A DNA stretch of 64,000 nucleotides from Leucoraja ocellata (taxonomy: Eukaryota), in assembly GCA_036785375.1 (NCBI GenBank), contig JAWMAR010000353.1, positions 2,418,001 through 2,482,000 on the forward strand. The letters run 5' to 3'. Below, in pieces: positions 22,680 to 60,013 of the stretch. The position numbers and the translations under genes were made by a program. The notes under the pieces are model-generated. The model searched no databases and had not been told where the DNA came from. It worked only from the letters and a program-made list of their open reading frames with translations. Position 1 is the stretch's first letter, and every line of letters starts with the position of its first letter.

Positions 22680-25600
22680 CGTTCGTAGTGATTCCTTCTA
22701 ACGAGGTTTAATGTAACTAACAATATTGCTAGTCAGAGTCTATGATGCTCTTAGGGACCTTGACATACTGGTGTAGATGCATGATCACACGCAACCCAAG
22801 GTCCATGGGATATGCAACATCTAGTTTGGTCTGTGTCCCTGTCTACTCTGCTTGACTAATCATAACAAAACATGTTATTATAGCCCACAGATATGATCAT
22901 TCTATCCAGTGTAGCAATGACTGGACCCGTAGCAAATCGACAGGCATCGTGAACCAGTACACCGATTCACATCAACAAATTCACCCGCAAATTGTGCACC
23001 TCAAACGGCAGTACTTTTAAATCGACGGGCTTCGTGAACCAATACACTTAGTAATTAAAGATAATTTATGCCATGTGTCTCGAGCAAAGGTTCTTCCTCT
23101 GCATTCCATCTACCTCCACAGCTTGAGATGGCATCCGCAGCTCCCCATTCCAGTGCACTTGCATCTGTTTATAAAATGGTAGGGTGTGATTCATTCAGAA
23201 TTTTCCTGTAAGAGTAATCCACATTTTTAATCCACCATTTTATATCCTCAATTGCTGTGTTAGTTAGTTGTATAGGCCTATCGTAACGTCCAGCATGTCT
23301 TCCCAATACTGATATCTTTGCGCACTGCAGCTGTCTGATAATGCAGTGGTCCAAACTGAACAGCTGGAAATGAAGCAATTAACTTGCGAATTAGATTTGC
23401 TACTTGACTGATTGATGGTTGTTTGCCTGCAATTAACTCCTTACAACCCTTAATCACTTGCAACTTTTTGTCCTTGGGTAAGCTCACTGTCTTGTGTTCT
23501 GAATTAATAGTGAACCCCAAGTAATCAATAATTTTGGTAGTTATCAGTCTGGATATCTCTGAATGAATGACAAATCCCATTCTTTGAAATGTGAGGTTTA
23601 CTTTTTAAAACAGAAGCTGCTGTCATGGCTTCAGTATCTCCCACAATTAAAATGTCATCCAAAGAAGCCATTATCAAATGGCCTTGAGTTCTTAACAATG
23701 CTAAAATTGACTTCAACAGTTTAGTAAACAATCTGGGGCTTTAAACTGCCACATTTGAGACATCCAGACACATTTCAAATATCTGCGATGTTGCTCATGC
23801 ACCACAACAGAATTATGTGCATCTTGGAGATCAATGCTTGCCATATAGCATTCTGTTGAAATTAATTGCAAAAAATTAGTACAAGTCTCCATTTTGAAAT
23901 GTTTATACTGCACGAAAGAGTTAAGACTTGTGAGGTCCAAAATGATTCTAGTACCCCCAATCCTTTTTTGTTCTAGAGAAAATACTAGATACAAAGTGAT
24001 GGTTTTGATAAGTTGTTTTCTCTATTACCCCTTTTTTACTCCAAATCTCAATTTTTATTTTTATTCTTCTCATCTCTTCTTTAGAGCAGGAATATATTCT
24101 TTTTGTAATATGTTGTGTAGGTGGATTTTAATTCTGGTAAAATTAAATTCTAAACCCCATAATTCTGCACAGTATATATGCATCAGATGTTATTAGTTTC
24201 CATTCTTTTAAAAATAATTGTAACCTACCCCCAACTTGTAAGTATGATACATCTGATATGTTTCTTTCAGAACCAGAGCCACCTACCTCAGAGTTTACTG
24301 GTGTAACTTTTTGTACATTTCCCCTTGTGGAAATACCATGACCTCCATGTCCTGGGGTTGTATGTCCATATCTTGTATGTGAGTCCGAGCGACTTGTTCA
24401 ATCACCAGTTCCCCTTCGGTATGGATATTGCCTTCTAGCTGTGCTGCAAACATCGGTGGTTTCATCATCCCAATGGTTTTTTATTCTTCGTTGAGAACCT
24501 TTAGTTATTTGGCAAGCTCTTCTCCAATGAGTACATTTGGCAATTGTATATTAGATGGTTTACAGAGCCCTGCAAACTTAGGATGTATGTTAGGTCTTAA
24601 CGCAGTTTTACAAATACAGTTTATTTCAAAAAGTGCATTCCACATCATTCCCATTACATCCTGTTGTGCCATTGTCACATTTCCTTCTTCCAGATCTTTG
24701 ACAAATGCCGTAATATTTGACCCAATCAATCTTAATTCCCGCTGGAATCTCATTTCTTGAGCTCTTACTACAATGCCCATATACTTCCACACTTCTTTGT
24801 TAACAGCTGGCACTCCAAGCAGAGCACAGGTCTGCGGGATTTCATATTTGTTCATAACTTCATCCATTGTTGCATCTTGTGATTGATGGGAAAGCAGGTA
24901 ATTTATACTCTCTGCTATTTCCTCTGGAAGAGGTTGTCCCTTGTGTCTGGGACTATAGACCTTTTGGACCAGCACTGGCATTTTTCTTTTTTGCTTTGGG
25001 TTCTGGCCCTCAACTGGTTCATTATCAGAGTATTCTGGATATTCCTCCTCATAATGGGTTTCACTTGGATATTCATCATCAGGTATTTCATGCGATGGCT
25101 CTATTATAGGCCGACGCTTTTTTGTCCCTCTTTGGCTACATCAAGCTCTTCATTTGAGCTGTATATTGGCAGCCCACTTTTGGGTGCTGCTCCATATTCT
25201 AGATCTCCTGTAGACCAACGCCTGTATTGTCTTTCAGACATTTCTGGTGCTGCCTCCGTGTCAGGTCAGCCCATATATTTATCTTTATCATCAGGCATTT
25301 CGTTCGCTGGCTCAAATCTGGGCCAACATTTCCCAGAACCTCTTCTGGGTGTTCCATGTGGTTGCTCTTTAAGCCCGCGTCTTTTATACTCCTTCTGGAG
25401 TTAGTTTTACCCTTGAGGAATTCCAGTTTATAAATTCTATAGTTCAGACTCCTCATAGTCTTCCAGGTCTGTTATTTCTTTATGGCCTTGCTCCCTATGG
25501 AAGTTTCAACGGGACTTTTCCCCTCCCGTGTAAAATAGTTATTTCTTTACAATCGACTTTTTAGTCAGGCGCCTGCTACTCTCAGACACGTTGTCTTATT

Positions 25601-25864
25601 GAGTGCTTACTGCGATGCGCTTACTATTCTTCCTCCCACCTTTCTCCATACATAAGACTTGCCTGTGTCTCTGCACGCAGTCTCTGAAGAAAAGCAGCCT
25701 GAAAGTATAAGTAGAAAAGACTTACGTCCATGTTTTCCTTCACTCACCGCTTAGAGGTTCCACACCTCCTATCGCGGTGGCAGCGCAATGCGTCTGACGA
25801 GATGACCCGCATGCGCCTGGACGGCCATCTTCACGTGGTCACTCACGTGACTCCGAAGTAAAAT
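22680..25864 (-). mobile_element. DIRS1-like retrotransposon, degenerate: terminus, gag, RT, RNase H and tyrosine recombinase remnant
   Basis: RIILDLTSLNSFVQYKHFKME, MASIDLQDA, LDDILIV, YLGFTINS, DASALEWGA, IVSYIKP; terminus ATTTTACTTCGGAGTCACGTGAGTGAC shared with the element ending at 49146. Confidence 0.88.
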
Positions 25865-40876: not shown

Positions 40877-41606
40877 ATTCCTATTAAATCGTTTCCCCTT
40901 CACCTTAAAACTGTCCTCTGTTCCTCGATTCACCTACTCGGGGCATTGAAATTGATATATCTAATGCATTTTAGATTTCTCAAAAGTGTTACTTTAAAAA
41001 AAGTAACGTTTCTACAAACATATACCCCTTTATTAATGTCATGGTTTGATGATTCTCAATTCAAATCAAAATGAAATATACGTCAAAATGAGAATGCATA
41101 CTTTCAAAATACTCAGATTCCGTGCAACACATAATTTGTATAACTTTGCAAAGTCAGGAAATGTTATGATTATTTCTTCTCCCTTTTTACAACTACAAAC
41201 AAAAAAAAAGCACTTGAAATTATAACACAATTAAAAGTCAAATTGTCTGTACCGTGGAAGGCACTGGCGTCGATCTGGGGGAGCGGAGGGGGGGGGGGGG
41301 GATATATCCCCCACACTTTTTGAGGTGGGGAATGGCCTGTATTATTATTACCCAGTTTTTGGAGGTCGAGCAATAACAAAAATAATAATCACCTCCTCCT
41401 ATCTCTTGAGGGCTCTGCATTTTCTTAAATATACTTCAAACAAAAACCATTGAAATCATACTTCACAATGCACTAAAACATGATTTTAATACATCAAATT
41501 TCAAAAAGTCCCAACCGTGGGATGGGGGGCTCCCTCGTCCTACAACCTCCCCCCCAATGCTTCAAAATCAAGTGGTCGAGTTTTATTGCCATATATTCTC
41601 AAGAAT

Positions 41607-41900
41607 AGAAATATAGGAAATAGGTGCAGGAATAGGCCTTACGCCCTATCGAGCCAGCACTGCCATTCAATATGATCATGGCTATTCATCTAAAATCAGT
41701 ACCCCTTTCCTGTTTTTTCCCCATATCCCCTGCTTTTGCTAGCTGCAACAGCTAAATGTAACTCTCTCTGGAAAACATCCAGTGAATTGGCCTCCACTGC
41801 CTTCTGTGGCAGAGAATTCCACAGATTCACAACTCTCTGGGTGAAGAAAGTTTGTCCTCATCTCTGAACTCCCCCAACACCGGGAACACTTTTCCTGCAG
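41607..41900 (-). mobile_element. CR1 3' end fragment
   Basis: 3' UTR similar to the other CR1 copies. Confidence 0.8.
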
Positions 41901-42000
41901 ATAGTGTGAAAATCCTGCAGACAAGCAGGATGCCTTCTCCATCCATCCCCATTTGAAGTCCACTATATTCCACCGCTTCTATCCAGTGTTTGGTACCTAC

Positions 42001-42147
42001 TTCCAGCAGCCACTGGTTGTCCTCCAGGATGAACCGAGCCGCAGCCTGTTCTATGCCGGTCACCAGGGTGAATTGGGCGCAGAGACTGTCACGGCAGCGG
42101 CACAATGCCTCAGACGGCCCGGGACTCTTGCACTGAGACTGCTCCAT
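42001..42147 (-). pseudogene. TDP2: TDP2 exon-1-like segment (N-terminal UBA-like domain); no downstream exons seen
   Basis: RDSLCAQFTLVTGIEQAAARFILEDNQWLLE followed by a GTAGGT donor, resembling TDP2 LCVEFASVASCDAAVAQCFLAENDWEME. Confidence 0.7.
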
Positions 42148-42536
42148 GGCCGGAGCTGCAGCGAGCGACTCGCCAGCCCGGCAAACACTCGCCAGCCCCG
42201 GCTCCCCGTCCGCATCTGCCCCCCTCCGCTGCTTCTGCTTCCATCCATCCCTCCCTCATCCTCGGCTCTCCAACACCCACGACCAGGTTGTTCAGAGCAC
42301 AGCAGCTGCAGCCCCCGGTTCCGCGGCCCGTGTCCATTTCTCTGGACTCCATCTGCCATGATTCTCAGTCTGAAAATGGATCTCGACCCGAATCATCACT
42401 CTGTAGCGGGACCTATTGGTTAAACTGTGTATTAGAGAAATTAGTGTCTGAAGAAGGGTTTCGGCCTGAAACGTTGCCTTTTTCCTTCGCTCCATAGATG
42501 CTGCTGCACCCGCTGAGTTTCTCCAGCACTTTTGTA

Positions 42537-42558
42537 CAAAGATCCTCTAGGATCTTTG
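42537..42558. mobile_element. 22-bp TIR-tip hairpin with 8-bp TSD inside a Penelope tail
   Basis: CAAAGATCCT-CT-AGGATCTTTG flanked by CTTTTGTA/CTTTTGTT. Confidence 0.8.
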
Positions 42559-42603
42559 CTTTTGTTTACCTGTGTATTAGAAAACCCTCGTCAGAGGCCG
42601 GGT

Positions 42604-42617
42604 CTGTCACGTGACAG
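42604..42617. promoter_or_regulatory. Palindromic E-box CTGTCACGTGACAG upstream of the TDP2-like exon
   Basis: 14-bp perfect palindrome with a GTCACGTGAC (USF/MiT-type) core in CpG-rich DNA. Confidence 0.4.
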
Positions 42618-42869
42618 GGTTGGCGCGCGGGCTTTTGGCAGTTGGTGTTTGACGGTTGGCAGTTGACGGTTGGTGATTGACAGTTGACGGTTGGTGTTTG
42701 AAGGTTGACAGTTGGTCCTCTACGCGTTAACAAGAGCTCAGAAACGGTTTTCCCTCGACCAGATACCCGTGCAGTTTAAATGTTGTTTTTACAATAAAAC
42801 TATTTGACTCTACCCGTGTGGTATCGCTACAACCTATTCCTTCTCTCCAACACATGCTGCCTGTCCCGC

Positions 42870-43395
42870 TACATTGGTCACCCCGTCGGCCCTAACGTTT
42901 TCGGACCCGCTGTTATGGACGCAGCCGGTGACCTCGACGCCAACCCGGCCCAGCTAAACGTCAAGGCCTCAAGCATGGTTCCTGCAAATCCAGCCCAGTT
43001 GCAGGTCGGACACAGTTACATTGCCGCCGGTTTAACCAGGTATTTCTACATGGATCAAGGAACCTCTCCTTACCTCTAACAAGCGCCGGCCGAAGGCAAG
43101 TACGAGGGCCTCCAGGATCCTGCACATGGACGGCCTCGGTGTGAACTGATGAACGAAATGTTGTCGCTGATGGACGGTGACCGGCCTCGTCTTGTCTTTG
43201 ACCAGGCGTTCGGCAGCGACCCCCTTCACCGGCCCCCCTGCAAGTCGCCGAGGGAGAGGACGAGCTGTGACAAGACAAGCAGCAACATAGCGACGCTTCC
43301 ATCAGCCGGGTATCTGCGGCTCCACCATTCATTCCACCGACAACACAACGATGCAACCGGCAGCAGCGGATACCGGTAAGTGTCTGACAGTCTTG
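42870..43395 (+). mobile_element. Gypsy-type LTR retrotransposon, PBS plus degenerate gag fragment
   Basis: CA-TTGGTCACCCCG PBS-like site; PQAWF, LTRYFY, LHMDGLG, MNEMLSL motifs. Confidence 0.65.
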
Positions 43396-43426
43396 GTCCT
43401 CATTCCTACCAAAGATTAGGAATGTT

Positions 43427-43625
43427 CACCCTGAGGGAGTTTCCGCGACCGCTGGGCACCGAGTGGGGGTTGAATGTATCCTGGACAAGGATTGTAATAT
43501 ACTTGTTTAGTAGCTGCTTAGCATATTTGTTTGTCTTGTATTATGGTGGTGTTTTGTTTTACTGTATTGGAAATACTATTTTCATATTTGAATAAATATT
43601 TTTGATTAAAAAATATATTAAAAAA
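43427..43625 (+). mobile_element. Tx1/L1-like 3' end with a 12-bp TSD (ATTAGGAATGTT)
   Basis: TSD at 43415-43426 and 43626-43637; AATAAA and A-rich tail. Confidence 0.8.
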
Positions 43626-44640
43626 ATTAGGAATGTTACAACATTTTAAGATTTAAACAAACCAAGCCTGTCATTTATTCCATCATATAAAGTTGAAAAA
43701 GGACTTTAATTTGACACCTAATTCACTTTCATATTTTAAGTATTAAAACAGTTATGGCCATTTGCATACTGGGAAATTAGCATCTTGTCCCCTATTGCTT
43801 TTCCATTCACTTAACACAAAAGCTGTGATCGAGGACAGTCAAAAGCCCATAACTTTATTAAAAATTAACAGAACTGTGAAATGTTCAGTTATTATAGATT
43901 GAAGCATTCTGGAAACAAGCATCCTTACTTGGATGGCCTGAAATTAAAGTATATAATTAGTTAATTACCTAATTAAGTAGCATGATTCGGGAGGGGCTGC
44001 TCGTTTTGTGCGGTTTTTCACTTGCACGCGTTAGTTCAGTGCTGACCACCGCTGTGGGCAGATGTGTCTGGAGAACCTGTATACTGGATATCAAACTTTT
44101 GTATAAAGATCTGTTGAAAACTCCAGTAGTCGTTTCTCAGACCACTAAAAGCTAATTACAAAATTACCCGTTGTGACGGAAATAGTAATAAACGCCCAGA
44201 CTGTCTTGAAAATTGAAAAATGTAATATTCTCAAGATCAGAACTTTAATATTATTGTAACATTAACACGAATAGTAAATACCCAACAAAAAATTCATATT
44301 CATCAGTCATCAAATCAATTAAATTCATCTAAATTAAATTACTAGATCTAAACATCTATCCCATTCTTAAGAAAAGGCTACAAATAATTTTTAAATAGCC
44401 AAAGTGTCCAAACAACAAACTAATCCCATTCACACAGGAATTCACAATATAAACTGATTTTTAAATCTCACTTTGTCATGAATTTCTATGCCAAATGTAA
44501 GGAATTGAATGTTTAATTACCATAAATTTTACTCTTTCTCACTGCAGCGGGCAGGGGCCGTTTTATACAGACATTTGTTCAAAATCCAGAAACATCCACT
44601 CTCGAGATAATCAAAATAATTATTTTTTGCACATGTCGGA
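43626..44640. repeat. Unclassified AT-rich interspersed-repeat-like segment
   Basis: Non-coding, AT-rich, hosts other insertions; family not determined. Confidence 0.35.
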
Positions 44641-44684
44641 GGATTATTTGTTGTATGTGACGGATGGTAGGGTGGAAGGTGAGG

Positions 44685-45485
44685 ACAAATAATCCTCCAA
44701 CATTTTCGCCACCACCAACAGGATCCCACCACTGGCCACATCTTCCCATCTCCTCCCCTGTCTGCTTTTCGCAAAGACCGCTCCCTCCCGAACTCCCTGG
44801 TCAATTCGTCCCTTCCCACCCGAACCACAGCCTCTCCTGGCACTTTCCCTTGCAACTGCAAGAAATGCTACACTTATCACTTTACCTCTCCCCTTCACTC
44901 CATTCAAGGACCCAAGCAGTCTTTCCAGGTTGGACAGAGGTTCACCTGCACCTCCTCCAACCTCATCTGTTGCACCCTCTGCTATAGATGTCAGCTGCTC
45001 TACATCGGTGAGACCAACTGTAGGCTTGGCGATCGCTTTGCCCAATACCTCCGCTCGGTTCGCAATAACGAAACCTGATGTCCTGGTGGCTCAGCACTTC
45101 AACTCCCCCTCCCATTCCCAATCCCTGACCTTAGTGTCCTGGGCCTCCTCCATGGCCAGAGTGAGGCCCGCCATAAATTGGAGGAGCAGCACCTCATATT
45201 TCGCTTGGGCAGTTTACACCCCAGCGGTATGAACATTGACTTCTCCAATTTCAGGTAGTCCCTGCTTTCTCCTCCTCTTCCCAGCTCTCCCTCAGCCCAC
45301 TGTCCCCGCCTCTTCCTTTCTTCTTCCCCCCCCCCTCCCCACCCTCACATCAATCTGCGGAAGGGTCTCGACCCGAAACGTTGCCTGTTTCCTTAGCTCC
45401 ATAGATGCTGCTGCCTCACCCGCTAAGTTTCTCCAGCATTTTTGTCTACCTTTGATTTTCCAGCATCTGCAGTTCCTTCTTAAAC
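44685..45485 (+). mobile_element. Penelope-like element 3' fragment (GIY-YIG)
   Basis: Highly similar to 14130-14802. Confidence 0.88.
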
Positions 45486-45775
45486 GTGTGGTTTAAATGT
45501 TGTTTTTACAATAACTATTTTACTCTACCCATTTGAACTCGCTACAACCCATTCCTTCTCTCTACACATGCTGCCTGTCCCGCTGAGTTACTCCAGCATT
45601 TTGTGTCTACATTCGGTGTAAACCTATATCCGCAGTTCCTTCCTGCACACAACCTCGCCGTTGCCATTCCGTTCCAGACATTGTCAATCCTTGAACTTCC
45701 CAGTAAAATGCTAGTGTGAGGTGCTGCTTACTGACATTCCCGGTGTAAACCTTGATGTAAACCACAGGGACTCAC

Positions 45776-47880
45776 CTACAACCTGCAGCTGCAGCGCCTC
45801 CTGCTGACGCTACGTGGGGGTGCTGATGGAACGCGTGTCAAGTCAAGTCAACTCAAGTCAAGTCAAGTTTATTTGTCACATACACATACGAGATGTGCAG
45901 TGAAATGAAAGTGGCAATGCTCGCGGACAAAAGACAAACAACCAAACAAACTATAAACACAATCATAACACACATATTCTTTTACATAATAAATAATGGA
46001 AGGTAAAACGTTCAGTAGAGTTAGTCCCTGGTGAGATAGGCGTTTTCAGTCCGAATGGCCTCTGGGAAAAAACTCCTTCTCAACCTCTCCGTTCTCACCG
46101 CATGGCAACGGAGGCGTTTGCCTGACCGTAGCAGCTGGAACAGTCCGTTGCAGGGGTGGAAGGGGTCTCTCATGATATTGTTGGCTCTGGAATTGCACCT
46201 CCTAATGTATAGTTCCTGCAGGGGGGCAAGTGAAGTTCCCATAGTGCGTTCGGCCGAACGCACTACTCTCTGCAGAGCCTTCTTGTCCTTGGCAGAGCAA
46301 TTCCCAAACCAGATGGTAATGTTCCCGGACAAGATGCTTTCCACAGCCACTGAGTAGAAGCACTGGAGGATCCTCGGAGACACTCTGAATTTCCTCAATT
46401 GCCTGAGGTGGTAAAGGCGCTGCCTTGCCTTACTCACGAGTGCTGAGGCGTGTGATGCTTCTATTATTTATTATGTAAAATAATATGTGTGTTATGGTTG
46501 TGTTTATAATTTGTTTGGTTGTTTTGTTGTTCCGCGAGCATTGCCACTTTCATTTCACTGCACATCTCGTTTGTGTATGTGACAAATAAACTTGACTTGA
46601 CTTGACTTGACTTGATGCGCATGTCATATCCTCAGAGATGTGGACTCCCAGATATTTAAAAAGTTCACCTTATCCACAGGATCCCCATTTATCCTCAATG
46701 GAGTGTACGTCCTCGGATGATGTGCCCTCCTAAATTCCATGATCAGCTCCTTCGTTTTTTTGATGTTCAAGAGGAGGCTGCTATCCTGGCACCAGAGTGC
46801 TAGATCAGCCACCTCCTCCCGGTCGTCGTTGTCTGAGATCAGGCCCACCACCATAGTGTCATCAGCAAACTTAATTATTGAGTTGGAGCTGAACCTAGCC
46901 ACACAGTCGTGTGTACAGGGAGTACAATAGGGGGCTGAGGACGCAACCCTGGGGCGATCCTGTGCTCAGGGTGAGGGACTTCGATGTATTCCCTCCCATC
47001 TTGACTACCTGGGGCCTGGCGGTGAGAAAGTCCAGGACCCAGGCACACAGGGAGGTGCTGAGCCCCAATTCCATTAGCTTCCCGGCCAGTCTGGTGGGGA
47101 CTATCGTGTTGAATGCTGAACTGTAGTCTATGAACAGCATCCTCACGTAGCCCCCCCCTTCTGGCTGTCCAGATGGGAGAGAGCGGTGTGCAAGACCTGG
47201 GAGACCGCATCGTCCGTGGATCTGTACATTCCAGCATCTGATACTTTGACCCTCTTCAGTTTAAGCGAGGCATTTCCATGGGGAAACTCTTCCCGAAAGT
47301 GTTCCATCCTCCCTCGATAAGCCTCGTCCTGCACCTCAGCTCCGTCCTGGCCGCTGGTGTATAAATGTACCAGTGATCCCGGGCTCGATGTAAACTATCG
47401 GACCTCCAGAGCGTCCAGTGATGTATCCGGTACCTTCTGACATTCCAATAGGGCATCTTCACCCACCATGGCCACCACCGGATGGTCCGGCACAATCACA
47501 GAGAACTCCTCTGGAACTTCAGCTTTTTACGTTGGCGCCTTGTGTAACTTTTCGAGGGTAGAGTGGTAGTTAAGCAAAAGCAGGTACATTTCCATTTTAC
47601 AGTTGCCAATTCTTCCAAAAATCATATTAGAATAAAGTCACAATCTCTGTCGCTCGAATGCTCCAAATGGGGGATTTGAACCCACGACCATCTGACCCAG
47701 GACTTTGTTAACAGCGACTCTACTGACAATCGGAACTCATCCCATACATCGACTGAGGCAGTGAAGTAGCACAATATTCACGGGAAGGTGTATGTGATGG
47801 TCGCGTAGATGGTGCCATTACGTACCCATGGTCTCCGCATGAACAAGCAACAGCACAAAGATGCAGCCTGCTCCCTTCAT
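45776..47880 (-). pseudogene. Butyrophilin-like pseudogene: leader exon (47826-47880 coding) and an IgV exon split into 47222-47510 and 45776-45838
   Basis: MKGAGCIFVLLLVHAETM|GT; [54 protein letters not shown]; remainder TRSISTPT*RQQEALQLQVV|GTGAGT. Confidence 0.9.
45838..47224 (-). mobile_element. Rex1/Babar LINE, 5'-truncated, with (CTTGA)n tail
   Basis: [48 protein letters not shown]. Confidence 0.93.
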
Positions 47881-48049
47881 CGTTGAAAGAATTCGTTCCT
47901 TGGTTTCACCTGGAAACTGAACATCGAGATAATGTTTAAATGGGTAGCACTACCGCACTGAAATTAAGTCCATGAACTAACTCTATGCATTCTATGTTTA
48001 ATATATTTTTATTAGAAGCATGTATACAAATAGCTGTAAGCGACAATAT

Positions 48050-49146
48050 AATAGTAAGATTAAACGAGAACTTACCAGTTTGAAGTTTGATCTGTATTTT
48101 ATGAGGAGTTACGATGAGGGATTACGTGAAGAACCCGCCTCAGGACGCATGTGCGGCATACTTCAAAGCAGCGGTGTGGAATCACAGATAGACACAAGTA
48201 TTTGAAGTAACATAGTAAAGAAAATAGAGACATCAATTTATCAGTTTGATCCATATAATGAGGGTGGGAGCGGAGGGCACGTAATCCCTCATCGTAACTC
48301 CTCATAAAATACAGATCAAACTTCAAACTGGTAAGTTCTCGTTTAATCTTACTATTTTACTTCGGAGTCACGTGAGTGACTACGTGAAGATTTCAAAGCT
48401 CTGTGATTTCAAACCGTGTAACAGCTATTACTACACCACTGCCGAAGTCTTTGAGGGAGGAAGTGTGTTATCGTAATCAGCCAATGAATCTGTTTATAGA
48501 AAAACACAATGGTATTTTTACAATAACAATGAAGAAATTTAAATGCTCCCCTGGACTAATTTAAATATTTGCAGATTGGAATCTTTCCTGCAAATAAAAA
48601 ACAAGTTTTGTCAACAGTTTATAATAAATTCTTTCTCTGAACGTTTTACCCCCACCATTCTGCTGTAGCCAGGATGTGGTTTATAGGCACGTCCATTCTT
48701 TTGCTGTTGACGTGGAAGCTTGTCCTGTGGAATGAAAAACTTTGTACATCTACTCGAGGGGCGAGCGAGGACTGAGGGGAACCTCCAACGAGTGCAAGCT
48801 CCGTCTTCCCATTGTCGCCCCTGTGGAGTGGTACCGGCACCGGCACAGCTCCCAGTCCATGGTCCACCGTGTGTGCGGTCCTGGTGGCGTCTTTCCCCCC
48901 CCCCCTCCCGCGAACGGAACACTCCTTCCCCGGAGTCCAAGGGGGCCGCTTGCATGCCCTGCGGGGAACAAGCAGACGCGAGGGGCTGTTAAAATAAAGG
49001 TAAGTACTTACCTAAAGCTTAGTTTTTCTGGTTGTTGCGGGAGCCCTGTCTCCCGCCTGCCGCTGTTGCCTGCTGAAACGTAATGCCGCACATGCGTCCT
49101 GAGGCGGGTTCTTCACGTAGTCATTCACGTGACTCCGAAGTAAAAT
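48050..49146 (-). mobile_element. Miniature non-autonomous DIRS1-like element with inverted termini and ICR
   Basis: Inverted repeat 48123-48159/49083-49119; ICR 48278-48390 complementary to both ends; recombinase C-terminal remnant KRMDVPINHILATAEW. Confidence 0.92.
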
Positions 49147-49450
49147 TACAGATTTCTTACATAGCTTCACTTTTAATTTGTTTTTAAAGAATAAAGATAA
49201 AGGGATAAAAAGATAAGAGAAACTATAAACTAATAGACAGAAAAAGAAAACGAAAAAGGAATTGCAATAACAAGTTGTTGAGTATAACTATTCATCCAAT
49301 CCCAAACTCATGTTTATATCCTGATTTTGTGTAAACCAATTCACTTTATTAAAAATTCAATAAATGGAGACCATATTCTAACAAATAATTCTGGTTTGTC
49401 AATTAAGAGAAATCTTATTTTTTCCAAATGCAAGGTCTCAGACTATAAAT
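49147..49450 (-). mobile_element. L1-type LINE 3' end (continues at ~48000-48050 across the DIRS insertion)
   Basis: TLHLEKIRFLLIDKPELFVRIWSPFIEF C-terminus. Confidence 0.7.
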
Positions 49451-49895
49451 TCTGTTTTATCAGGTAATATAAAATAAATTATTGGCAAAACGCCACAGGG
49501 TACAACTTCAGACAAATACAGAAGGCGTGTGTCCAACAATATGCATACGTTTGAGGCTGATCGTTTTTTACCAGAGTTTTCTCCTTAGTGTTTTATGTTT
49601 GTTTTTGCAAAATACTATCATTAAACGCTAGTGTAGTTTGCAAACTGCTCTTGAGTTTCAGAACATTCAGAACATTACACAACGTTAATGCAGGGAGTGG
49701 AGGGTGGTGGATTGTGTGACAATAATTAAGCATTGGTCTCTGCATCGTGTTTGGCACAGACATTGTGGGCCGAGGGTCACGTTCCTCTGTTGTTCTGTGT
49801 TCTATGATCTATTGTGCATTGAGCCTACGTTTACAGTTCCAGTAGAGAAACGGAGGCGAGGAGAGAGGCAGGAAGATTGCTGTGGTCAACGCCTC

Positions 49896-50109
49896 CGTCA
49901 CCCCAGATCCCCTGGCCACTGTTATATCAGGAAGATTGTTTGTGTCCTCCTTGGTGAAGACAGATCCAAAGTACCTGTTCAACTCATCTGCCATTTCCTT
50001 GTTCCCCATAATAAATTCACCTTTTTCGATCTGCAAGGGTCCAACTTTGGTCTTAACTAATGTTTTCCTCTTCACATACCTAAAGAAGCTTTTACTATCC
50101 TCCTTTAGG
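49896..50109 (-). mobile_element. Internal CR1 fragment between 33-bp direct repeats
   Basis: KTKVGPLQ..MADELNRYFGSVFT; repeats at 49863-49895 and 50110-50142. Confidence 0.85.
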
Positions 50110-51059
50110 GAGAGGCAAGAAGATTGCTGTGGTCAACGCCTCGAGATAAGCATTATGCAGGGCGACAGTGAGAAGTCAAGATACAGCGTCCATTTTCACA
50201 AGGGGACATGATATAAACCACGCGAGGCTATCCCAGACCGTGGAGTAAGATGCACCCCACTAACCGGAATATACAGAATAAATTGTTGTCCTTTAGAAGA
50301 AACAGAAAAACAAAACAACATTGTTAAAATTTCTCACAGCAAAAATGTCCAAGTTGCTTGTCTTTAAAAATGGTGGCGTTGCTTTAATTTAACATTCCAA
50401 GATTTGGAAGGAAAATTATTTGACAAACAACATCCAGACAATTTGGTCAATGTTGGTAAAAGTTGGGATATTGAGATGCACAGAATAAACGGCTGAAGAA
50501 AAAAACGATTTGCCTGTTACAGAAAAGGTTTGTGGGTGAGGTACCGGATGGATTGCTGTTTGAGACAGCCTGCGTTGGGCAACTGGTTCAGTACCGTCCT
50601 GAGTTTCTGGTCAACGTGACTCCTTTCACTGGCTGCTCTAACCTGACATCTGCTCCCATGAAACACGCCTTCCTTTGAGTTTGAAACCAGATAAATGTTC
50701 CACACTAATACTCTTCGCAAATATGCAACCTCTCAACAGCAAAAACAACACGTCGCACCTTTTCTGGGCAGTGATGGTCCAAAGTCTGGCTTGTTCCTTT
50801 TATTAAAGAGAACTGATAAAGATTCAGGCTGAAATCATAAAGGAATCCAAAGGAGTCCAAAGGGCTTTTACTGCACATTATCAATCACAGGACTGTGGGG
50901 AGGCAGTGAGACGATGAACAACCAAAGTTGGGAATAAGGTAGGGACATTTCTATACTTTTAACTTGTTTCCTATAATTGTGGCCATACTGACCAATGTGG
51001 ACATTAGAACCATCTGAAGTTATGTGCAACTCTGTATTAATGCCATTAAACTGTCTCAT

Positions 51060-51490
51060 GGTGTGTCGTTAAAGAATCACCAAAACAGGAGAGTCGACAA
51101 AGAAGTCAGTGGATGTTATTTACTTGGATTATCAGAAGGATTTTGATAATGTGCCACACGCGAGGCTGCTAAACAGGATTGGAGCTCCTAGTATTTGAAG
51201 CAAGGTTCCAGCATGGATAGTAGATTGGTTGACGGGCAGATTCAACGAGTGAGAATAAAGGGGGGACATTTCTGGTTGGCTGCTGGTGAATAGTGGTGTT
51301 CCATGGGGGTTGGTGTAGGGGCTTCATGTGTTAATGGTCTGGATGGGAGAATTGGTGACTTTGTGGACAAATTTGCAGACGGGATGAAAAGAGGTGGAGG
51401 GGGCAGTTGTGTAGAGGAAGCATGGAGGCTGCAGAATGACGTGGACAGGTTGGGAGAGTGGGCAAAGAAGTGGAAAATGGAATACAGCGG
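51060..51490 (+). mobile_element. Old CR1 RT fragment
   Basis: VDVIYLDYQKDFDNVPH, KFADGMK, LQNDVDRLGEWA. Confidence 0.8.
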
Positions 51491-51643
51491 GTTGTTGTGT
51501 TTGACTGAGAGTTCACAATCTAAAATATTCGTTCCCCGCCACTCCCTGGTACTGATAAGGACAAGCGCAGTGAACTGGGCGGCACGGTGGCGCAACGGCA
51601 AAGCTGCTGCCTTCTTCTTCTTGCGAATGGCATGCACAGCCTA

Positions 51644-51871
51644 ATGTCCCTGTCCCACTTAGGAAACCTGAACGGAAACCTCTGGAGACTTTGCGCCCCA
51701 CCCAAGGTTTCCGTGCGGTTCCCGGGGGGTTTTGTCAGTCACCCTACCTGCTTCCACTACCTGCAACCTCCGGCAGCCAACTGCAACCTCCGGGAACCGC
51801 ACGGAAACCTTGAGTGGGGCGCAAAGTCTCCAGAGGTTTCCGTTCAGATCTCCTAAGTGGGACAGGGGCAT
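51644..51871. mobile_element. Palindromic MITE, ~80-bp inverted arms, TA target duplication
   Basis: TA-ATGTCCCTGTCCCACTTAGG...CCTAAGTGGGACAGGGGCAT-TA. Confidence 0.9.
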
Positions 51872-51928
51872 TAAAGTTGTAGGACAACTAGTTCTATTTG
51901 ATCTTATTTGATTGTGCACGCCGGAGTC

Positions 51929-51981
51929 ATTGCATTGGTCGAAACAGGGCGGACCACGTGAAGATTGCAATCTCCCACCCC
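51929..51981 (-). ncRNA. HDV-like self-cleaving ribozyme fold (minimal)
   Basis: P1 GGGGUGG/CCGCCCU with G1.U wobble, P2 AUUGCA/UGCAAU, P3 AUC/GGU, L3 UUCACGU, short UUCG P4, J4/2 CCAA. Confidence 0.8.
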
Positions 51982-53517
51982 AGTTGCTGCCTCACAGAGA
52001 CCCGGGTTCGATCCTGACTACGGGTGTTGTTTGTACGAAGTTTGTACGTTCTCCCCGCGACCGCGTGTGGTTTCTCCGAGTGCTCCGGTATTTTCCCACA
52101 ATCCAAAGACGTGCAGGTTTGTAGATAATTGGCATCATGAAAATGTGTAAATTCTCCCTAGTCTGCAGGGTCGTGCTGGTGTACACGGTGATCTCTGGTC
52201 GTCGCGGACATGGTGGGCTGAAGGGGCCGTTTCCATGCTGTATCTCGAAAGTACAATCTAAAGTCTCTCCATTGGGCACGTGGTGTATGGAAGTAACTGA
52301 ATTATTTTATTTTCATATTAATGATATTTGGAAACTCTCCGGGAATATTCTTTATGCCCTATAACATCACAGTGTCAAACAATGTAAATGCCCCCATTCG
52401 CTGTGGAAAGTATTCCCCGGACACTGTGGGAGCAACGTTCATGATTGCAACAACCACTTCAGTCCACGTACAGATCTTGTGTATGAGAGATATTACATAA
52501 TCTTGTGTTAGAAAGTTCCTCTACTAGTCCTACTGTTCCCGCCTACATTCTATCTGTGTCCCATCCCCTCCCTCGACATCAGTCTGAAGAAAGGTCTCGA
52601 CCATAAACGTCACCTATTCCTTCTCTCCATAGATGCTACCTGTCCCGCTGAGTTACTCCAGCATTTTGTGTCTATCTTCCACTGACCGATCTTCCCCACA
52701 CATTGACCGTCACCTTCCCCTCAGCTCCCCTGCTGTACCACCTGAAGCCACTCTGGGAATGTCCTCACTCGGCTTCTGTCAACAAGAATCCACAGTGTCC
52801 AGGCCGTGCCCTTGTCTCACTGCTAACGTCGGGTAGGACGTGTAGAAGACTGAATTCCCACACCGTCAGGTTCAAATACAGCTTCAACCCCACAACTATC
52901 AGGTTCTTGAACCGACCCGCACACCCATAGTCCCACCTCAGTATTTACAGAACCATATCACCAGAGGACTATGGTCCAATATAAATACTGAGGAAGCGCA
53001 TCGAACAAATTAACGATTGGACGTGCCGAAACTTTCTTCAATGAAACGAAGACAAAAGGGTGGAAATTGTTTGTATAAAGCACTGAATGATCTAGGGCCA
53101 AAATACATCTCTGATTTTCTGCTACAAGGTTGACGAGTTCCCGCTCAGACTCTCCTGTGCTGGGGATGAGTGGGAAATAGAGGCCAAAAATGTCGGGTCC
53201 ACATCGGATAAAACAGGGGGAGAGAGAAACAGGAGCTAATGAGAGAGCAGAGACCCGGGAGATATTGTTCACTCTTTATTCCTCTGGACAATATCATCTC
53301 ACCCCGTGAATATTTTTTATTGTCCCGGCATCTTTTGACTTCAGAAATATTTTCTGTCCTTTGACAGGTTTGATGATGGGTGACTGAAGAAATTCCCGGG
53401 AGAAGATTTGTCCCAGACCTGGCCCCCTTGACGGGAGACTCAAGGAGCAGATTGTAAAGGGAGCCGGGATCCCGGTGCGGAGCCTGGAGTCCTTTGGCCA
53501 CCGGTTGCCCTTGGCCA

Positions 53518-53616
53518 CCCCGCACAAGGTGTGACCTTTCACCACGCACAAGGTGTGACCTTTCACCCCGCACAAGGTGTGACCTTTCACCCCGCACAAG
53601 GTGTGACCTTTCACCC
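53518..53616. repeat. 24-bp tandem repeat x4 (CCCCGCACAAGGTGTGACCTTTCA)
   Basis: Direct reading. Confidence 0.95.
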
Positions 53617-53716
53617 CCTGGTCAACAGTGAGTGGGGGTGGTGAACATCGGCAGCGGGGACGGGGGGGGGGGGGGAGGGGGTTGACAGGTTCGTGCCCAT
53701 CACGGGTCAGTCTAAC

Positions 53717-53752
<36 letters not shown>

Positions 53753-53773
53753 GGCACTGACCCCTCCACTGGG

Positions 53774-53831
53774 ATGGGAGTGGTTCACTGCGCTGTGTTG
53801 TTACTGAACTGGATCCTCAGCTCAGCCCACG
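53774..53831 (+). CDS. Butyrophilin-like gene, signal-peptide exon
   Basis: MGVVHCAVLLLNWILSSAH with phase-1 GTAATG donor; (CT)n CAG acceptor at 53753. Confidence 0.8.
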
Positions 53832-54314
53832 GTAATGACCACAACATCTGGTCTATTTCTATTTATTTATCTCATGGAGGGGGCTTCATGGAGTCAGAAG
53901 ATTCATATTTTAAAATCATTCATTTTAATGCAGTTGTCCACATCACTTAATACGATCAGGTAGGAGGTTCTTCCTCCCTCTGTGAGCGATGATGGGAACT
54001 GCAGGAGTAGGAGGCAACTTCATTTTCGTGGATAATCAGGATAGCAGGAAGCAGAGAGTGGATGCTGATCATTTTTCTCTCTGGGTGGCAAGATGGAAGG
54101 AGTGGTGTCCCACGGGGATTGGTGTCGAGGCCCCAATGTTATGTAAACAAATAATCGTGGACAAGCAGTGAAAATGTTCATATCCTGGCTTCATCCCTGG
54201 ATTATAAGGTTATTGGTGATAGGAGCAGATTAAGGCCATTCCACCCAAGTCTACTCCGCCATTCAATCATGGCTGATCTATCTCTCCCTCCCTAACACCA
54301 TTAGAGACATGGTC

Positions 54315-55370
54315 TTAGAGTGATACAGCATGGAAACAGGTCCTTCGGCCCAACATGCCCACACCGGCCAACAATGTCCCATCTACACTAGTCATAGAGT
54401 TATACAGCATGGAAACAGGCCCTTCGGCCCAACTTGCCCACACCGGCTAACAATATCCCATCTACACTAGTCACAGAGTGATACAGCATGGAAACAGGCC
54501 CTTCGGCCCAACTTGCCCACACTGGCCAACAAAGTCATAGTGCACTTGTCACAGAGTGATACAGTGTGGAAACAGGCCCTTCAGCCCAACTTGCCCACAC
54601 CGGCCACCAATGTCCCATCTACACTAGTCACAGAGTGATACAGCATGGAAGCAGGCCCTTCGGCCCAACTTGCCCACACCGGCCAACAAAGTCTCTGTAC
54701 ACTAGTCACAGAGTGATACAGTGTGGAAACAGGCCCTTCGGCCCAACTTGCCCACACCGGCCAACAATGTCCCAGCTACACTAGTCCCACCTGCCCGCGC
54801 TTGGTCCATATCCCTCTAAACCTATCCTGTCCTATCCATGTACCTGTCCAACTGTTTCTTTAAAGATTGGATAGTCCCAGCCTCAACTACCGCCTCCAGC
54901 AGCTTGTTCCCTACATCCACCATGGTGTGTGAAAATGTTACCCCTCGAATTCCTATTAAATGTTTTCCCCTTCACTTTGAACCTATGTCCTCTGGTCCTC
55001 GATGCCCCTACTCTGGGTAAAAGACTCTGTGCATCTACCCGATCTATTCCTCTCATGATTTTGTACACCTCTATAAGATCTCCCCTCATCCTCCTGCGCT
55101 CCATGGAATAAAGACCCAGTCTACTCAACCTCTCCCTGTAGCTCACACCCTCTAGTCCTGGCAACATCCTCGTAAATCTTTTCTGAAGATTCTCAAGCTT
55201 GACAATATATTTCCTATAACCTGGTGACCAGAACTGAACACAATATTCTAAATGCGGTTTCACCAACGTCTTATACAACTGCAAGTTCTGTACTCAATAC
55301 TCTGACTGATGAAGGCCAAAGAGCCAAAAGCCTTTTTGACCACCTTATGTACCTGCGACTCGACCTTCAA
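54315..55370 (-). mobile_element. Intronic CR1 3' fragment whose terminal ~79 bp is tandemly repeated ~6 times (54315-54785)
   Basis: LYKTLVKPHLEYCVQFWSP ORF; repeated AGAGTGATACAG..CCCTTCGGCCC unit. Confidence 0.9.
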
Positions 55371-55434
55371 TAAGGGATTATCCTTATTGATTCCTTAAAT
55401 AAGTATATTTCCAATTATTTGAATTGACCCGCAG

Positions 55435-55782
55435 GTGAATTTCTCGTTATTGGACCGGGCGATGGTTTTGTGGCCACTGTAGGTGGAGATGTGGTGTTGG
55501 AATGTCAGCTTGTACCAGATATATTGACCAGCAACATGGTCGTGCAGTGGAGGAAGACAGGTCTCATCTCGCCAGTCCTTGTGTACAGACATGGACACAA
55601 TGACACCCTCGCTCAACACCAGGATTACAGAGCAAGGGCCAAACTGTTTAAAGATGAAGTGACCAAAGGGAACATTTCCCTCAGAATAAAGAACGTAACA
55701 AGGTTTGATGAAGGGGAATATACATGTTCATTTACAGAGGGAACCGAGTATGAAGATTCTCCAGCTCAACTACAAGTTCGAG
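55435..55782 (+). CDS. Butyrophilin-like gene, IgV exon (348 nt, phase 1-1)
   Basis: EFLVIGP..VGGDVVLEC..VQW..QHQDYRARAKLF..GNISLRIKNV..DEGEYTC; CAG/GTGAGT splice sites. Confidence 0.93.
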
Positions 55783-56234
55783 GTGAGTAAGTAAAACATC
55801 GATGATTGACGATAAATGTAAAACGAACAGATTGTAAAGAGCGTTCACTCAACAATGTAGATTTATAATTACATAATTAACAACTTGCTGCTGTTGTAAT
55901 GTTTATATTGAGAAGTAACTTGAGTAAATGGAGAAAGGGTTTCATCCCGAAACCTTGCCTGTTTCCTTCGCTCCATAGATGCTGCCTCACCCGCTGTTTC
56001 TCCAGCATTTTTGTCTACCTTTGAGTAAATGAAGGGCAGCCATGGGAATGTATTTAACTGGAGTTCCATCACATCTGTCCCAGTGTTTTTCATTGAGGGG
56101 AATGGAGAATGGATGTAGGGAAGGTGCATCACAGTTGTACAGGATGTTGTTGAGATCTCACCTGGGACACAGTGTACAGTCTTTGTCTCCTTACTGAAGG
56201 AAAAATGTACTTGCCATGTGCAGCATATATGTAC

Positions 56235-56266
<32 letters not shown>

Positions 56267-56802
56267 TCTCCCTTTGAATCTCCACCTCGTTGCGCTCATT
56301 TCCCAAATCAAGGTCAAGTATAATCCCACCGAGCGATGTATTAACTGCCTAGTGTGTCAGGAAACCCTTCTAGATGTATCAAACAAATGCTGCCACATCT
56401 AAGTCCTTGCCCCAGAGGCATTCAAGGTGAATATTGGTTGGTTGTGGAATATGACTTCAAATTTCCCAATATTGACCATGAGTGCTACTTCCAGGTGGCC
56501 AGATACTTGGATCCCCAGATACCTCCGTTCCACCTCACTATACAGGTTCCAGCCATTTACCCTGTCACTTCAGCCTGGATTTAATTACCGAAATGATGAA
56601 AACATTCTGCAGGTCAGGCAGCATCTGGGGAGAGAGAAGCAGAGTTGACATTTCTGCTCAATGACTTTCCATTGGAACTAGAAATAATTAGAAATTATAT
56701 AAGTATTGTTGCAAGAGGTTTGAATACTTGAACAAAATGCTGTATGGTCCAAGTTGCTATTCTTCCTGACTATTGTTATTTCTACATCTGTCACTGATGC
56801 AG

Positions 56803-57083
56803 CTTTGGGGAGTTTGATCCGGATTCGGTTGCAGGGATACCAGGGAGATGGAATCCAGCTTGTGTGTAAGTCCAGTGGATGGTATCCTGGACCAGAGATG
56901 CTGTGGATCAGTGAGGATGGACAGGTTTTACCACAAGCTGAAACAATGTACCATGAAGATACAGAAGGTCTTGTAAATGTGGAGAGCAACGTGACAGTAA
57001 TGAGGCAATTAACAACAAGTTCAAGTGTGTTGTTCAGTACCGATGGTTAAATATACAACGTGAGGCAATTGTTAAAATATCAG
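56803..57083 (+). CDS. Butyrophilin-like gene, IgC exon (281 nt; 1-nt frameshift near 57015)
   Basis: ALGS..GIQLVCKSSGWYPGPEMLW; the second Cys (KFKCVVQ..AIVKIS) lies in a shifted frame. Confidence 0.9.
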
Positions 57084-57283
57084 GTTTGTAAATGTTGCTG
57101 TTTGATCATTGAAGTATAAAGGTGATTTACATTCCATTGAAACCCCGACTGTCCAGAATGTTCACTGAGGTGCTCACATGTTTCACAGTGATGATTTATC
57201 CACATCTCACTTCTGTGGGGAAATGATCACTGATTTTTAAAGACAGTTTACTATATGCGCCGTTCACTGTCTTCACTCTGCAG

Positions 57284-57406
57284 ATGATATCTTTCCTGCT
57301 GGAATTCCTGACTGGGTCCTGCCGCTGGTCCTCACCATTTGTCTTCTCATTGCCGCCCACGGTGCTGTGTTTTACTGGAACGTGAAACAAAACAGACGCA
57401 TTAAAG
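57284..57406 (+). CDS. Butyrophilin-like gene, transmembrane exon
   Basis: DDIFPAGIPDWVLPLVLTICLLIAAHGAVFYWNVKQNRRIK; CAG/GTACGT, phase 1-1. Confidence 0.88.
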
Positions 57407-58596
57407 GTACGTTAAACAACAGCGTAAGATGCAGGTCAGGAAATCCGGGCAGGATTCTCCCAGATTCCCACTGTAACTTCAGTGGAAAACCAGAGCACTC
57501 TCCGCGGGGCTTCCACCTTCCAGCAGTAACTGTCGCCCCTGGACAGAATATCAGTGTCCCGGGAGGTGGGGGTAATNNNNNNNNNNNNNNNNNNNNNNNN
57601 NNNNNNNNNNNNNNNNNNNNNNNNNNNNNNNNNNNNNNNNNNNNNNNNNNNNNNNNNNNNNNNNNNNNNNNNNNNNNNNNNNNNNNNNNNNNNNNNNNNN
57701 NNNNNNNNNNNNNNNNNNNNNNNNNNNNNNNNTTGGTGTGCGTGTNNNNNNNNNNNNNNNNNNNNNNNNNNNNNNNNNNNNNNNNNNNNNNNNNNNNNNN
57801 NNNNNNNNNNNNNNNNNNNNNNNNNNNNNNNNNNNNNNNNNNNNNNNNNNNNNNNNNNNNNNNNNNNNNNNNNNNNNNNNNNNNNNNNNNNNNNNNNNNN
57901 NNNNNNNNNNNNNNNNNNNNNNNNNNNNGAGAAGATTTAACCGGACACAGAATCACTTGGGCTTGTCTCTGTTTCCTGTATTTGATCTCCACTGTGGAGA
58001 GACGGATCACAGATGAGGTGATCATTTGGATCAACATCTCTGTTCACTTCCCCGTTGTCAACCTGAGCTTTCACTCACTAGTCACTTTCATTGTGTGTCC
58101 CGTACCAGTGTGAGCTCTCCCTCACTCCTACACTGATCTAATGAGGCTGAGCAGAGGCTGGGGGACCGCCTGCCTTTGAAGCCGGCATCTCGCAGCTTCC
58201 CCATTCAACATTGTCCACAATAATCACCGTGTTGACATTTACCTACAACAACTGTTGGTCGTGGGTGAATGATTGAAACGTCCCCAGATCCACAGTGTAT
58301 TTATTCACCTGATCCGTTCCTCATCATTCCCCTCTCCTGCCCTTCACATCTTACACAACATTTGTTTCCCCGCTACACTTGTGTCACACCTGTCACCATC
58401 TGACATTGTCCAGGCCTGATGAGACCCTGTCAATGTGAACCAGGAATTCTGTTCCTCACTGTAGCTGCCTGACCCGCGCGGAACTTCCCTCATTGTCCTG
58501 CACTTATTTCCAGCCTTGTTTGGATTGACCTGTGACTCTGATAGTCATTGTCTCTGATGCTCATTGTTCAAATGTAACACTGGTTTCTCCTTCCAG

Positions 58597-58629
58597 AGCT
58601 GGAACGGCGCAAATACATCATAGAAAATG
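58597..58629 (+). CDS. Butyrophilin-like gene, short cytoplasmic coiled-coil exon
   Basis: TTCTCCTTCCAG acceptor, ELERRKYIIEN, GTAAGA donor; 33 nt, phase 1-1. Confidence 0.7.
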
Positions 58630-58669
58630 GTAAGAATTTACTATAGAAATATTCACAAATGAGAAGGAA

Positions 58670-58830
58670 TGGTGACACAGTGGCGCTGCTGGGAGAATTG
58701 ATATCTCACAGTGCCAGAGACGAGGGTTCGATGCTGACCTTGGGTGCTGTCTGTGTGGAGTTTGCATGTTCTCCCTGTGACGGGTTTCCTCCGGGTGCTC
58801 CGGTTTCCTCCCACATACTGAAGGCGTGCG
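58670..58830 (+). mobile_element. tRNA-derived SINE (degenerate)
   Basis: GGTTCGATGC B-box and TGTGTGGAGTTTGCATGTTCTCC core. Confidence 0.65.
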
Positions 58831-58839
58831 TGTCTGTGT

Positions 58840-60013
58840 GTTAATTTCAGGAATGCTGATGGTGTACAAGCCCCAATCAGCATCAATGGTGTCGAAGTAC
58901 AAGTGGGTGAGAGCCTCATGTATCTCGGTGTTAATATTCACAGTGATCTGTTGTGGACCAAGATCAGAGAATCAACAGCCAATATGTCACCCAATGTCTC
59001 CACTTGCTTAGGAGACTGAGGAGATTCAGCCTGTCTAGACGAGATCGTAATTACTGAAAGATGTAGATGTAGCCCAGTCCCACACACACCACACTCCCCA
59101 CCATTGTAGATGTAGCCCAGTCCCACACACACCACACTCCCCACCATTGTAGATGTAGCCCAGTCCCACACACACCACACTCCCCACCATTGTAGATGTA
59201 TCCCAGTCCCACACACACCACACTCCCCACCATTGTAAATGTATCCCAGTCCCACACACACCACACTCCCCACCATTCTAGATGTAGCCCAGTCCCACAC
59301 ACACCACACTCCCCACCATTGTAGATGTATCCCAGTCCCACACACACCACACTCCCCACCATTGTAGATGTAGCCCAGTCCCACACACACCACACTCCCC
59401 ACCATTGTAGATGTAGCCCAGTCCCACACACACCACACTCCCCACCATTGTAGATGTAGCCCAGTCCCACACACACCACACTCCCCACCATTGTAGATGT
59501 AGCCCAGTCCCACACACACCACACTCCCCACCATTGTAGATGTAGCCCAGTCCCACACAGACCACACTCCCCACCATTGTAGATGTATCCCAGTCCCACA
59601 CACGCCACACTCCCCACCATTGTAGATGTAGCCCAGTCCCACACACACCACACTCCCCACCATTGTAGATGTAGCCCAGTCCCACACACACACCACACTC
59701 CCCACCATTGTAGATGTAGCCCAGTCCCACACACACCACACTCCCCACCATTGTAGTAGCCCAGTCCCACACACACCACACACCCCACCATTGTAGATGT
59801 AGCCCAGTCCCACACACACCACACTCCCCACCATTGTAGATGTAGCCCAGTCCCACACACACCACACTCCCCACCATTGTAGATGTAGCCCAGTCCCTCA
59901 CACACCACATTCCCCACCATTGTAGATGTAGCTCAGTCCCACAAGCATTTCACTTCACTACACCTCGGTGTGTGTGAATGTGACTAATAAAATACATTTG
60001 ACTTTGACTTTGA
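58840..60013 (+). mobile_element. Degenerate Rex1-type LINE fragment containing a minisatellite, ending in a (TTTGAC)n tail
   Basis: YLGVNIHSDLLW..LRRLRRF motifs; tail at 59985-60013. Confidence 0.65.
59062..59943. repeat. 43-bp minisatellite (~20 copies)
   Basis: Unit GTAGATGTAGCCCAGTCCCACACACACCACACTCCCCACCATT. Confidence 0.97.

Follow-up and report, generated by a model that had tools for sequence, protein, structure and literature searches.

DIRS1-like retrotransposons most commonly end in the trinucleotide ATT, according to the description in PMC3266345. For the DIRS-1 element of Dictyostelium, reverse transcriptase (RT) acts in trans on coding-deficient RNA and the internal complementary region (ICR) is required for retrotransposition, but with the trDIRS-1 helper/donor construct the full trans cycle of a truncated element could not be scored (PMC7192593). 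TOC1 of Chlamydomonas has been called an active non-autonomous DIRS retrotransposon (10.1101/2022.06.16.496473). Our literature search on non-autonomous or miniature DIRS elements gave one relevant passage, on TOC1, and named families of this kind may exist in Repbase or Dfam; a search on DIRS in skate, shark and elasmobranchs found no paper centred on these elements. TOC1 carries split direct repeats and not the ITR/ICR arrangement, while TRIM- and MITE-like miniature derivatives are small and coding-free with both ends kept.

Presented here is a 1.1-kb DIRS1-like copy from a 64,000-nucleotide stretch of the Leucoraja ocellata genome (the window, to which all positions refer unless a contig is named). 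The initial annotation had proposed a miniature parasite mobilised in trans. It is a real DIRS1-like remnant with intact end signals, which most likely arose by a one-off deletion and not as a miniature parasite.

Anatomy and insertion site of the 1.1-kb element

The internally deleted element (48050-49146, 1,097 bp) is assigned to the minus strand, with its 5' end at 49146, because the ICR lies near 48050. It consists of 397 bp from the 5' end and 700 bp from the 3' end of a 4.6-kb parent. As annotated, AAT is found on the plus strand at both ends, corresponding to terminal ATT trinucleotides at 49144-49146 (5') and 48050-48052 (3'), and the conserved parts of the ITRs match perfectly over 37 bp (49083-49119 at the 5' side and 48123-48159 at the 3' side, both minus strand); a second comparison gives an inverted repeat of 45 bp at 93%. 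The ICR is located at 48278-48390 on the same strand. One half (48278-48356) is the exact reverse complement of the 3' terminus with its right extension (48050-48128, 79/79), the other (48354-48390) is complementary to the 5' terminus (49110-49146) at 36 of 37 positions with a mismatch at 49124 that is private to this copy, and both overlap on the circle-junction ATT at 48354-48356. Reverse-complemented, the ICR reads as the right end joined to the left end via one AAT at 112 of 113 bases, which bears out its reading as the complement of the two joined termini.

The recombinase scrap described as the only coding remnant was recovered at about 48564-48750 (minus strand) as a frameshifted C-terminal piece of the tyrosine recombinase (YR), equivalent to about residues 949-1012 of the polyprotein of an intact relative. 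Its protein alignment is weak (E-values = 6e-4 and 0.09), and at the DNA level longer copies match this position with the last part of their coding region at 98-99% identity. At 48750-49082 (minus strand) the element has kept 5' untranslated sequence of the parent, whose gag-like region begins further in and is absent here. A 16-bp palindrome within the untranslated part (48998-49013) matches the splice-donor consensus on either strand.

Compared with the DIRS1-like elements with ATT ends described in PMC3266345, the copy shows the same ITRs with conserved and divergent parts and a right extension, two ICRs complementary to the termini and overlapping on a 3-bp junction, and no target-site duplication. 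It differs in having no gag, RT, RNase H (RH) or methyltransferase (MT) and merely a broken recombinase tail, so that the intact RT and recombinase frames of an autonomous element are both absent; homology to gag, RT-RH-MT and YR is evident through the parent and the intact relatives. The latter encode RT-RH-MT-YR in one frame of ~1,015 aa, in contrast with the separate YR frame of DIRS1 (PMC3266345).

The insertion target is an L1-like 3' UTR, with its distal part at 47997-48049 and its proximal part at 49147-49441 (both minus strand). This agrees with the annotated position inside an L1 3' UTR, as related copies of 49147-49441 continue into the C-terminal part of a LINE ORF2, where a Cx2Cx7Hx4C motif is found. 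Pfam zf-RVT reached an E-value of 0.032, which falls short of its cut-off, and the L1-clade label is partly our assumption from motif knowledge. The flank is present in seven paralogues at ≥98% identity, which form a star tree at distances of 0.8-2%. Five of them are empty and read through a single AAT, and two are filled, with AAT at both ends and nothing further duplicated, the same trinucleotide at both ends and once in the empty site being the arrangement of DIRS1-like elements. This is the arrangement that a crossover between the circle junction and a genomic trinucleotide predicts. The empty-site joint was also seen in contigs of the public runs X1, X2 and X5.

The other filled paralogue (L062, C666:819336-825991) has the left and right flanks of the window together with the full internal region, and belongs to a block that is collinear with positions 41588-59943 of the window (about 94-99% identity). 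Its element differs from the 1.1-kb element at 12 of 1,094 bases, and the two share subfamily-diagnostic positions and no private substitution. The paralogue tree was tried as a means to show the two filled units as sisters and gave a star. A single insertion followed by duplication is therefore deduced from the shared site and subfamily and not from a clade. The simplest history would be one insertion near the duplication burst and a later deletion in one unit; against it, the two filled paralogues share no exclusive substitution in either the flank or the element comparison.

On the minus strand beside the element (~47146-47470) there is an Ig V-set exon (Pfam V-set E-value = 0.0011, below the cut-off), presumably butyrophilin-like, with paralogues on C666 and C4311. 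In the four paralogues read, LINE sequence interrupts this exon ahead of the second cysteine, and the window copy has an extra stop; the duplicated unit looks like a pseudogene array. The window starts with a long, strongly T-skewed tandem array (1-13000) and also contains a 43-bp satellite (~59060-59943), which is much longer in the C666 paralogue.

A tabulation of target trinucleotides over the fetched loci gave ATT at 89 of 93 distinct 3' ends and at 66 of 69 5' ends, with a purine before it in 88% and A or T after it in 88%. Together with the five empty paralogues, these counts uphold the DIRS1-like identity and the ATT crossover. Three insertions (L065/L067 on C130, L070 on C2155 and L148 on C3) occupy one position in diverged copies of a LINE that was labelled CR1-like by eye, the flanks of L065 and L070 being 81-84% identical; this shared position is a sign of target preference beyond ATT. 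Loci L249, L259, L260 and L196 contain head-to-tail DIRS tandems joined via a single ATT, that is, insertions into the end of another element.

A separate and distantly related DIRS1-like fragment is located at 23040-25864 (minus strand), where remnants of gag, RT and RNase H show about 33-56% amino-acid identity to relatives. Its end (25828-25864) matches the 5' terminus of the element at 35 of 37 positions and carries AAT at 25862-25864, just as had been annotated. A second remnant, of a DIRS gag and pol start, faces this fragment on the plus strand at ~21587-22608.

The 4.6-kb RT-less parent lineage and its candidate helpers

In the intact relative L225 there are a gag-like frame of 428 aa and a second frame of 1,012 aa, the latter of which contains the Pfam domains RVT_1 (residues 158-319, E-value = 1.5e-20) and Phage_integrase (residues 832-993, E-value = 7.8e-8). 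A Pfam scan of 12 frames of the parent copy L061 and three frames of the 1.1-kb element yielded no family, and their domains were placed by tblastn against the intact relative. L061 has no tblastn counterpart to residues 63-308 and about 411-462 of the L225 polyprotein, so that most of the RT domain (about 740 bp) is missing together with part of RNase H; we take the first RNase H motif to lie within the missing part. The only protein match of a parent fragment is from Leucoraja erinacea, which points to a host that is probably a skate-like cartilaginous fish; the matches of that protein in the genome reach 91% identity.

A 28-base motif across the RT deletion has 1,211 matches in the genome. 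Among 47 loci chosen by similarity and not at random, 31 carry the RT-deletion junction, at 24 distinct flank pairs (L154, with a variant junction, was left out of the 31). All 31 share one in-frame RNase H stop; 29 end in ATT on both sides, one has ATT/AGT and one runs off its locus. With the RT core deleted and the frames broken, the 4.6-kb parent is not autonomous, and the same disabling lesions recur at independent sites, which means that the coding capacity of these copies was already lost at the time of their transposition. Two DIRS lineages meet in the parent at the RT deletion, making it a mosaic. On the gag side, identity to L225 is 93-94% and identity to the broken RT-bearing lineage L146 is 71-77%; just past the RT junction the values are 77% and 94-96%, respectively. 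A template switch between the two lineages that dropped the RT is its likely origin. The RT deletion was also considered as a splice product, and its borders showed no splice sites.

Of the 18 candidate helpers fetched, 12 contain an RT-RH-MT-YR frame that is open over 1,012-1,052 aa, and their termini and ICR are near-identical to those of the parent, the last 353 bp of L061 being 97% identical to L225. Coding-intact partners with compatible cis sequences thus exist in the same genome, among them the intact families L225-L233 and L240-L242, which have RT, RNase H, methyltransferase and recombinase in one frame and an overlapping gag-like frame. Judged from these shared termini, the intact elements are likely helpers of the 4.6-kb parent, and the idea of mobilisation in trans, when transferred to the parent family, would fit. 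In contrast with the trDIRS-1 assay as described in PMC7192593, the RT-less genomic copies at many ATT sites imply completed cycles.

Two groups of sequences were rejected in this part of the analysis. The 6.6-kb loci L062 and L064, considered as an autonomous form, are 4.6-kb copies with different 2-kb nested inserts, and the RT-bearing relatives closest to the 3' half of the parent (L145, L146, L161, L163, L164 and L195-L204), considered as helpers, have no long DIRS coding frame. Nested inserts were noted inside family copies at L064 (C505), L062 (C666) and L151 (C192), that of L064 containing an open 596-aa RT-like frame. Seven RT-less copies (L068, L069 and L072-L076) have identical flanks on seven contigs, as passengers of a larger unit that was amplified. 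Other internal deletions of the parent, of 937 bp and 729 bp, were observed in L121 and L122 (C282) and in L140, L141 and L154 (C3), each at two places on one contig.

Copy number and origin of the deletion

The deletion junction (48749|48750) is unique in the genome and has no exact microhomology. Both a 25-base pattern across it, allowing at most one mismatch, and a gapped, looser pattern matched once in the 3.44-Gb genome, and no daughter copies were found by these genome-wide patterns, whose counts miss diverged daughters with at least two changes in the 25 bases. In a DNA search of the same genome, in which the best 40 of 7,141 candidates were scored, the 39 besides the window copy match bases 1-700 only and end at query positions 698-700; with the right-hand part as query, 39 of 40 scored matches start at the breakpoint. 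Among 17 loci with both ends, 15 measure 4,538-4,646 bp and two reach 6.6 kb through different nested inserts. The count of copies with the same internal deletion, which had been proposed as the decisive check, therefore returned the one-off outcome, and the several copies at independent sites that would define a miniature family are not seen.

That the 1.1-kb form belongs to a miniature non-autonomous family and transposes as a unit with helper proteins is, accordingly, very improbable. All cis elements are intact in it, helpers with matching termini exist and the parent lineage probably moved in trans; moreover, DIRS elements reuse homologous repeat sites, as the three insertions at one LINE position illustrate, and an independent insertion into the paralogue is conceivable. 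Nevertheless, the assembly holds a single copy, the paralogue at this site, a member of the same small subfamily, retains its full internal region, and in a set of 30 ICR loci, sampled by their order in the genome and including one at a contig end, no 5' terminus was located within 1.5 kb upstream of the ICR. The claim of a trans-mobilised parasite is abandoned for the 1.1-kb form on account of the single-copy junction and the undeleted paralogue.

The near-perfect ICR match had also been regarded as a mark of recent activity, which does not hold. An ICR 30-mer occurs within one mismatch at 20,750 genome sites, spanning families whose coding regions are about 65-94% alike, and the 17 longer copies show 0-7 ICR differences, mostly 1-3. 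The single ICR mismatch of the 1.1-kb copy is the private change at 49124, and the differences from its undeleted paralogue also oppose recent activity. The ICR match is reset at each transposition; it dates the insertion of the parent, at roughly 0.7% private divergence, and says nothing on the activity of the stub.

We consider that the middle of the single-copy element was probably lost after insertion, by plain DNA deletion from a 4.6-kb RT-less parent. About 3.5 kb is missing relative to the 4.6-kb copies and 5,562 bp relative to the paralogue with the nested insert. Against a plain deletion, the borders resemble splice sites, which random DNA deletion would rarely produce. Read on the plus strand, which is antisense to the element, the missing DNA begins at CAT|GTTAGT and has a pyrimidine-rich CAG at its other border, so a GT-AG-bounded piece in a splice-like context is missing on the antisense strand. 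Ranked by a simple consensus score, the donor falls among the best 9 of the 294 GT sites on that strand and the acceptor among the best 14 of its 236 AG sites; simulated random deletions gave GT..AG in about 1%, GT..YAG in 0.5% and GT..YAG with a donor-like hexamer in about 0.05% of cases, and GT-AG borders were seen in none of seven other distinct internal deletions of family copies. These features favour a minority reading, which we hold to be unlikely overall, in which cryptic GT-AG sites were used to splice an antisense RNA of the resident 4.6-kb element, whose cDNA, synthesised in trans, re-entered this paralogue by recombination, in a manner similar to cDNA-mediated intron loss; the insertion history would be the same and only the mechanism of deletion would differ. 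The pattern, however, was noticed post hoc, a 2-bp microhomology (CA) with one later substitution also fits the junction, and there is one such product among >1,000 copies. The cryptic sites are found across the non-autonomous lineage and are not kept in most intact families, and the neighbouring Ig V-set exon is on the opposite strand to them, so that a host transcript would not use them. Furthermore, cDNA-mediated intron loss is rare in vertebrates.

It is highly unlikely that the deletion is an assembly error. The deletion of ~3.5 kb is seen in the assembly alone, in a region of near-identical duplications. Among the contig pieces listed for runs X1-X5, which can show presence only, none bridges 48749|48750, and the loose contig ends at this position belong to the undeleted form, which weighs neither for nor against the deletion. 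Against an error, the copy has eight substitutions of its own relative to the family majority, on both sides of the junction, seven of which occur in none of the 17 compared copies; its flanks differ no less than those of the other paralogues do, and the clean join offers no homology at which a misjoin could have begun.

With plain deletion as the preferred mechanism, the locus would have developed as follows. The 4.6-kb lineage lacks the RT core and part of RNase H, has stop codons in common among its copies and is a two-lineage mosaic; RT and recombinase would have come in trans from intact elements with the same termini. A circle joined at ATT then recombined, presumably through the tyrosine recombinase, with a genomic ATT in the L1-like 3' UTR, leaving one trinucleotide per end. 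The site lies in the segmentally duplicated unit. Finally, a DNA-level deletion in the window paralogue probably removed the region from gag to most of the recombinase and left a stub with its cis signals.

Significance for DIRS1-like mobility in the skate genome

Known derivatives help to place this element. TOC1 is likewise a non-autonomous member of the DIRS order, as described in 10.1101/2022.06.16.496473, but the 1.1-kb element has not spread; it also differs from TRIM- and MITE-like derivatives in being a single, unamplified copy. Our search found no literature joining splicing and gene conversion for such elements. SpIREs, the spliced integrated copies of L1, derive from sense RNA and are inserted at new sites. 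If the splice reading holds, the element is alike in missing a GT-AG-bounded piece, with the differences that its borders are antisense and that it shares its site with an unspliced paralogue (compare PMC5860796).

The 1.1-kb stub itself is an ordinary dead copy, and the filled and empty paralogues show conservative ATT crossover within one genome. On the basis of sequence comparison, the RT-less parent, with about 1,200 copies, provides genomic evidence that would indicate DIRS1-like retrotransposition in trans at scale, completion in trans being the point that the Dictyostelium truncated-element assay, as described in PMC7192593, could not score. Across several families, about 20,000 elements have these ends in common, so that defective ones could be mobilised by any intact family. 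As for the tentative alternative, splicing of an antisense RNA of a resident RT-less DIRS may have joined the recombinase tail to the 5' UTR, and a helper DIRS may have copied the product into cDNA that returned to the chromosome, giving a complete mini-DIRS in a single step. If so, antisense splicing with cDNA conversion would be an added route to mini-elements, and we would be observing the birth of a miniature tyrosine-recombinase retrotransposon, caught before amplification.
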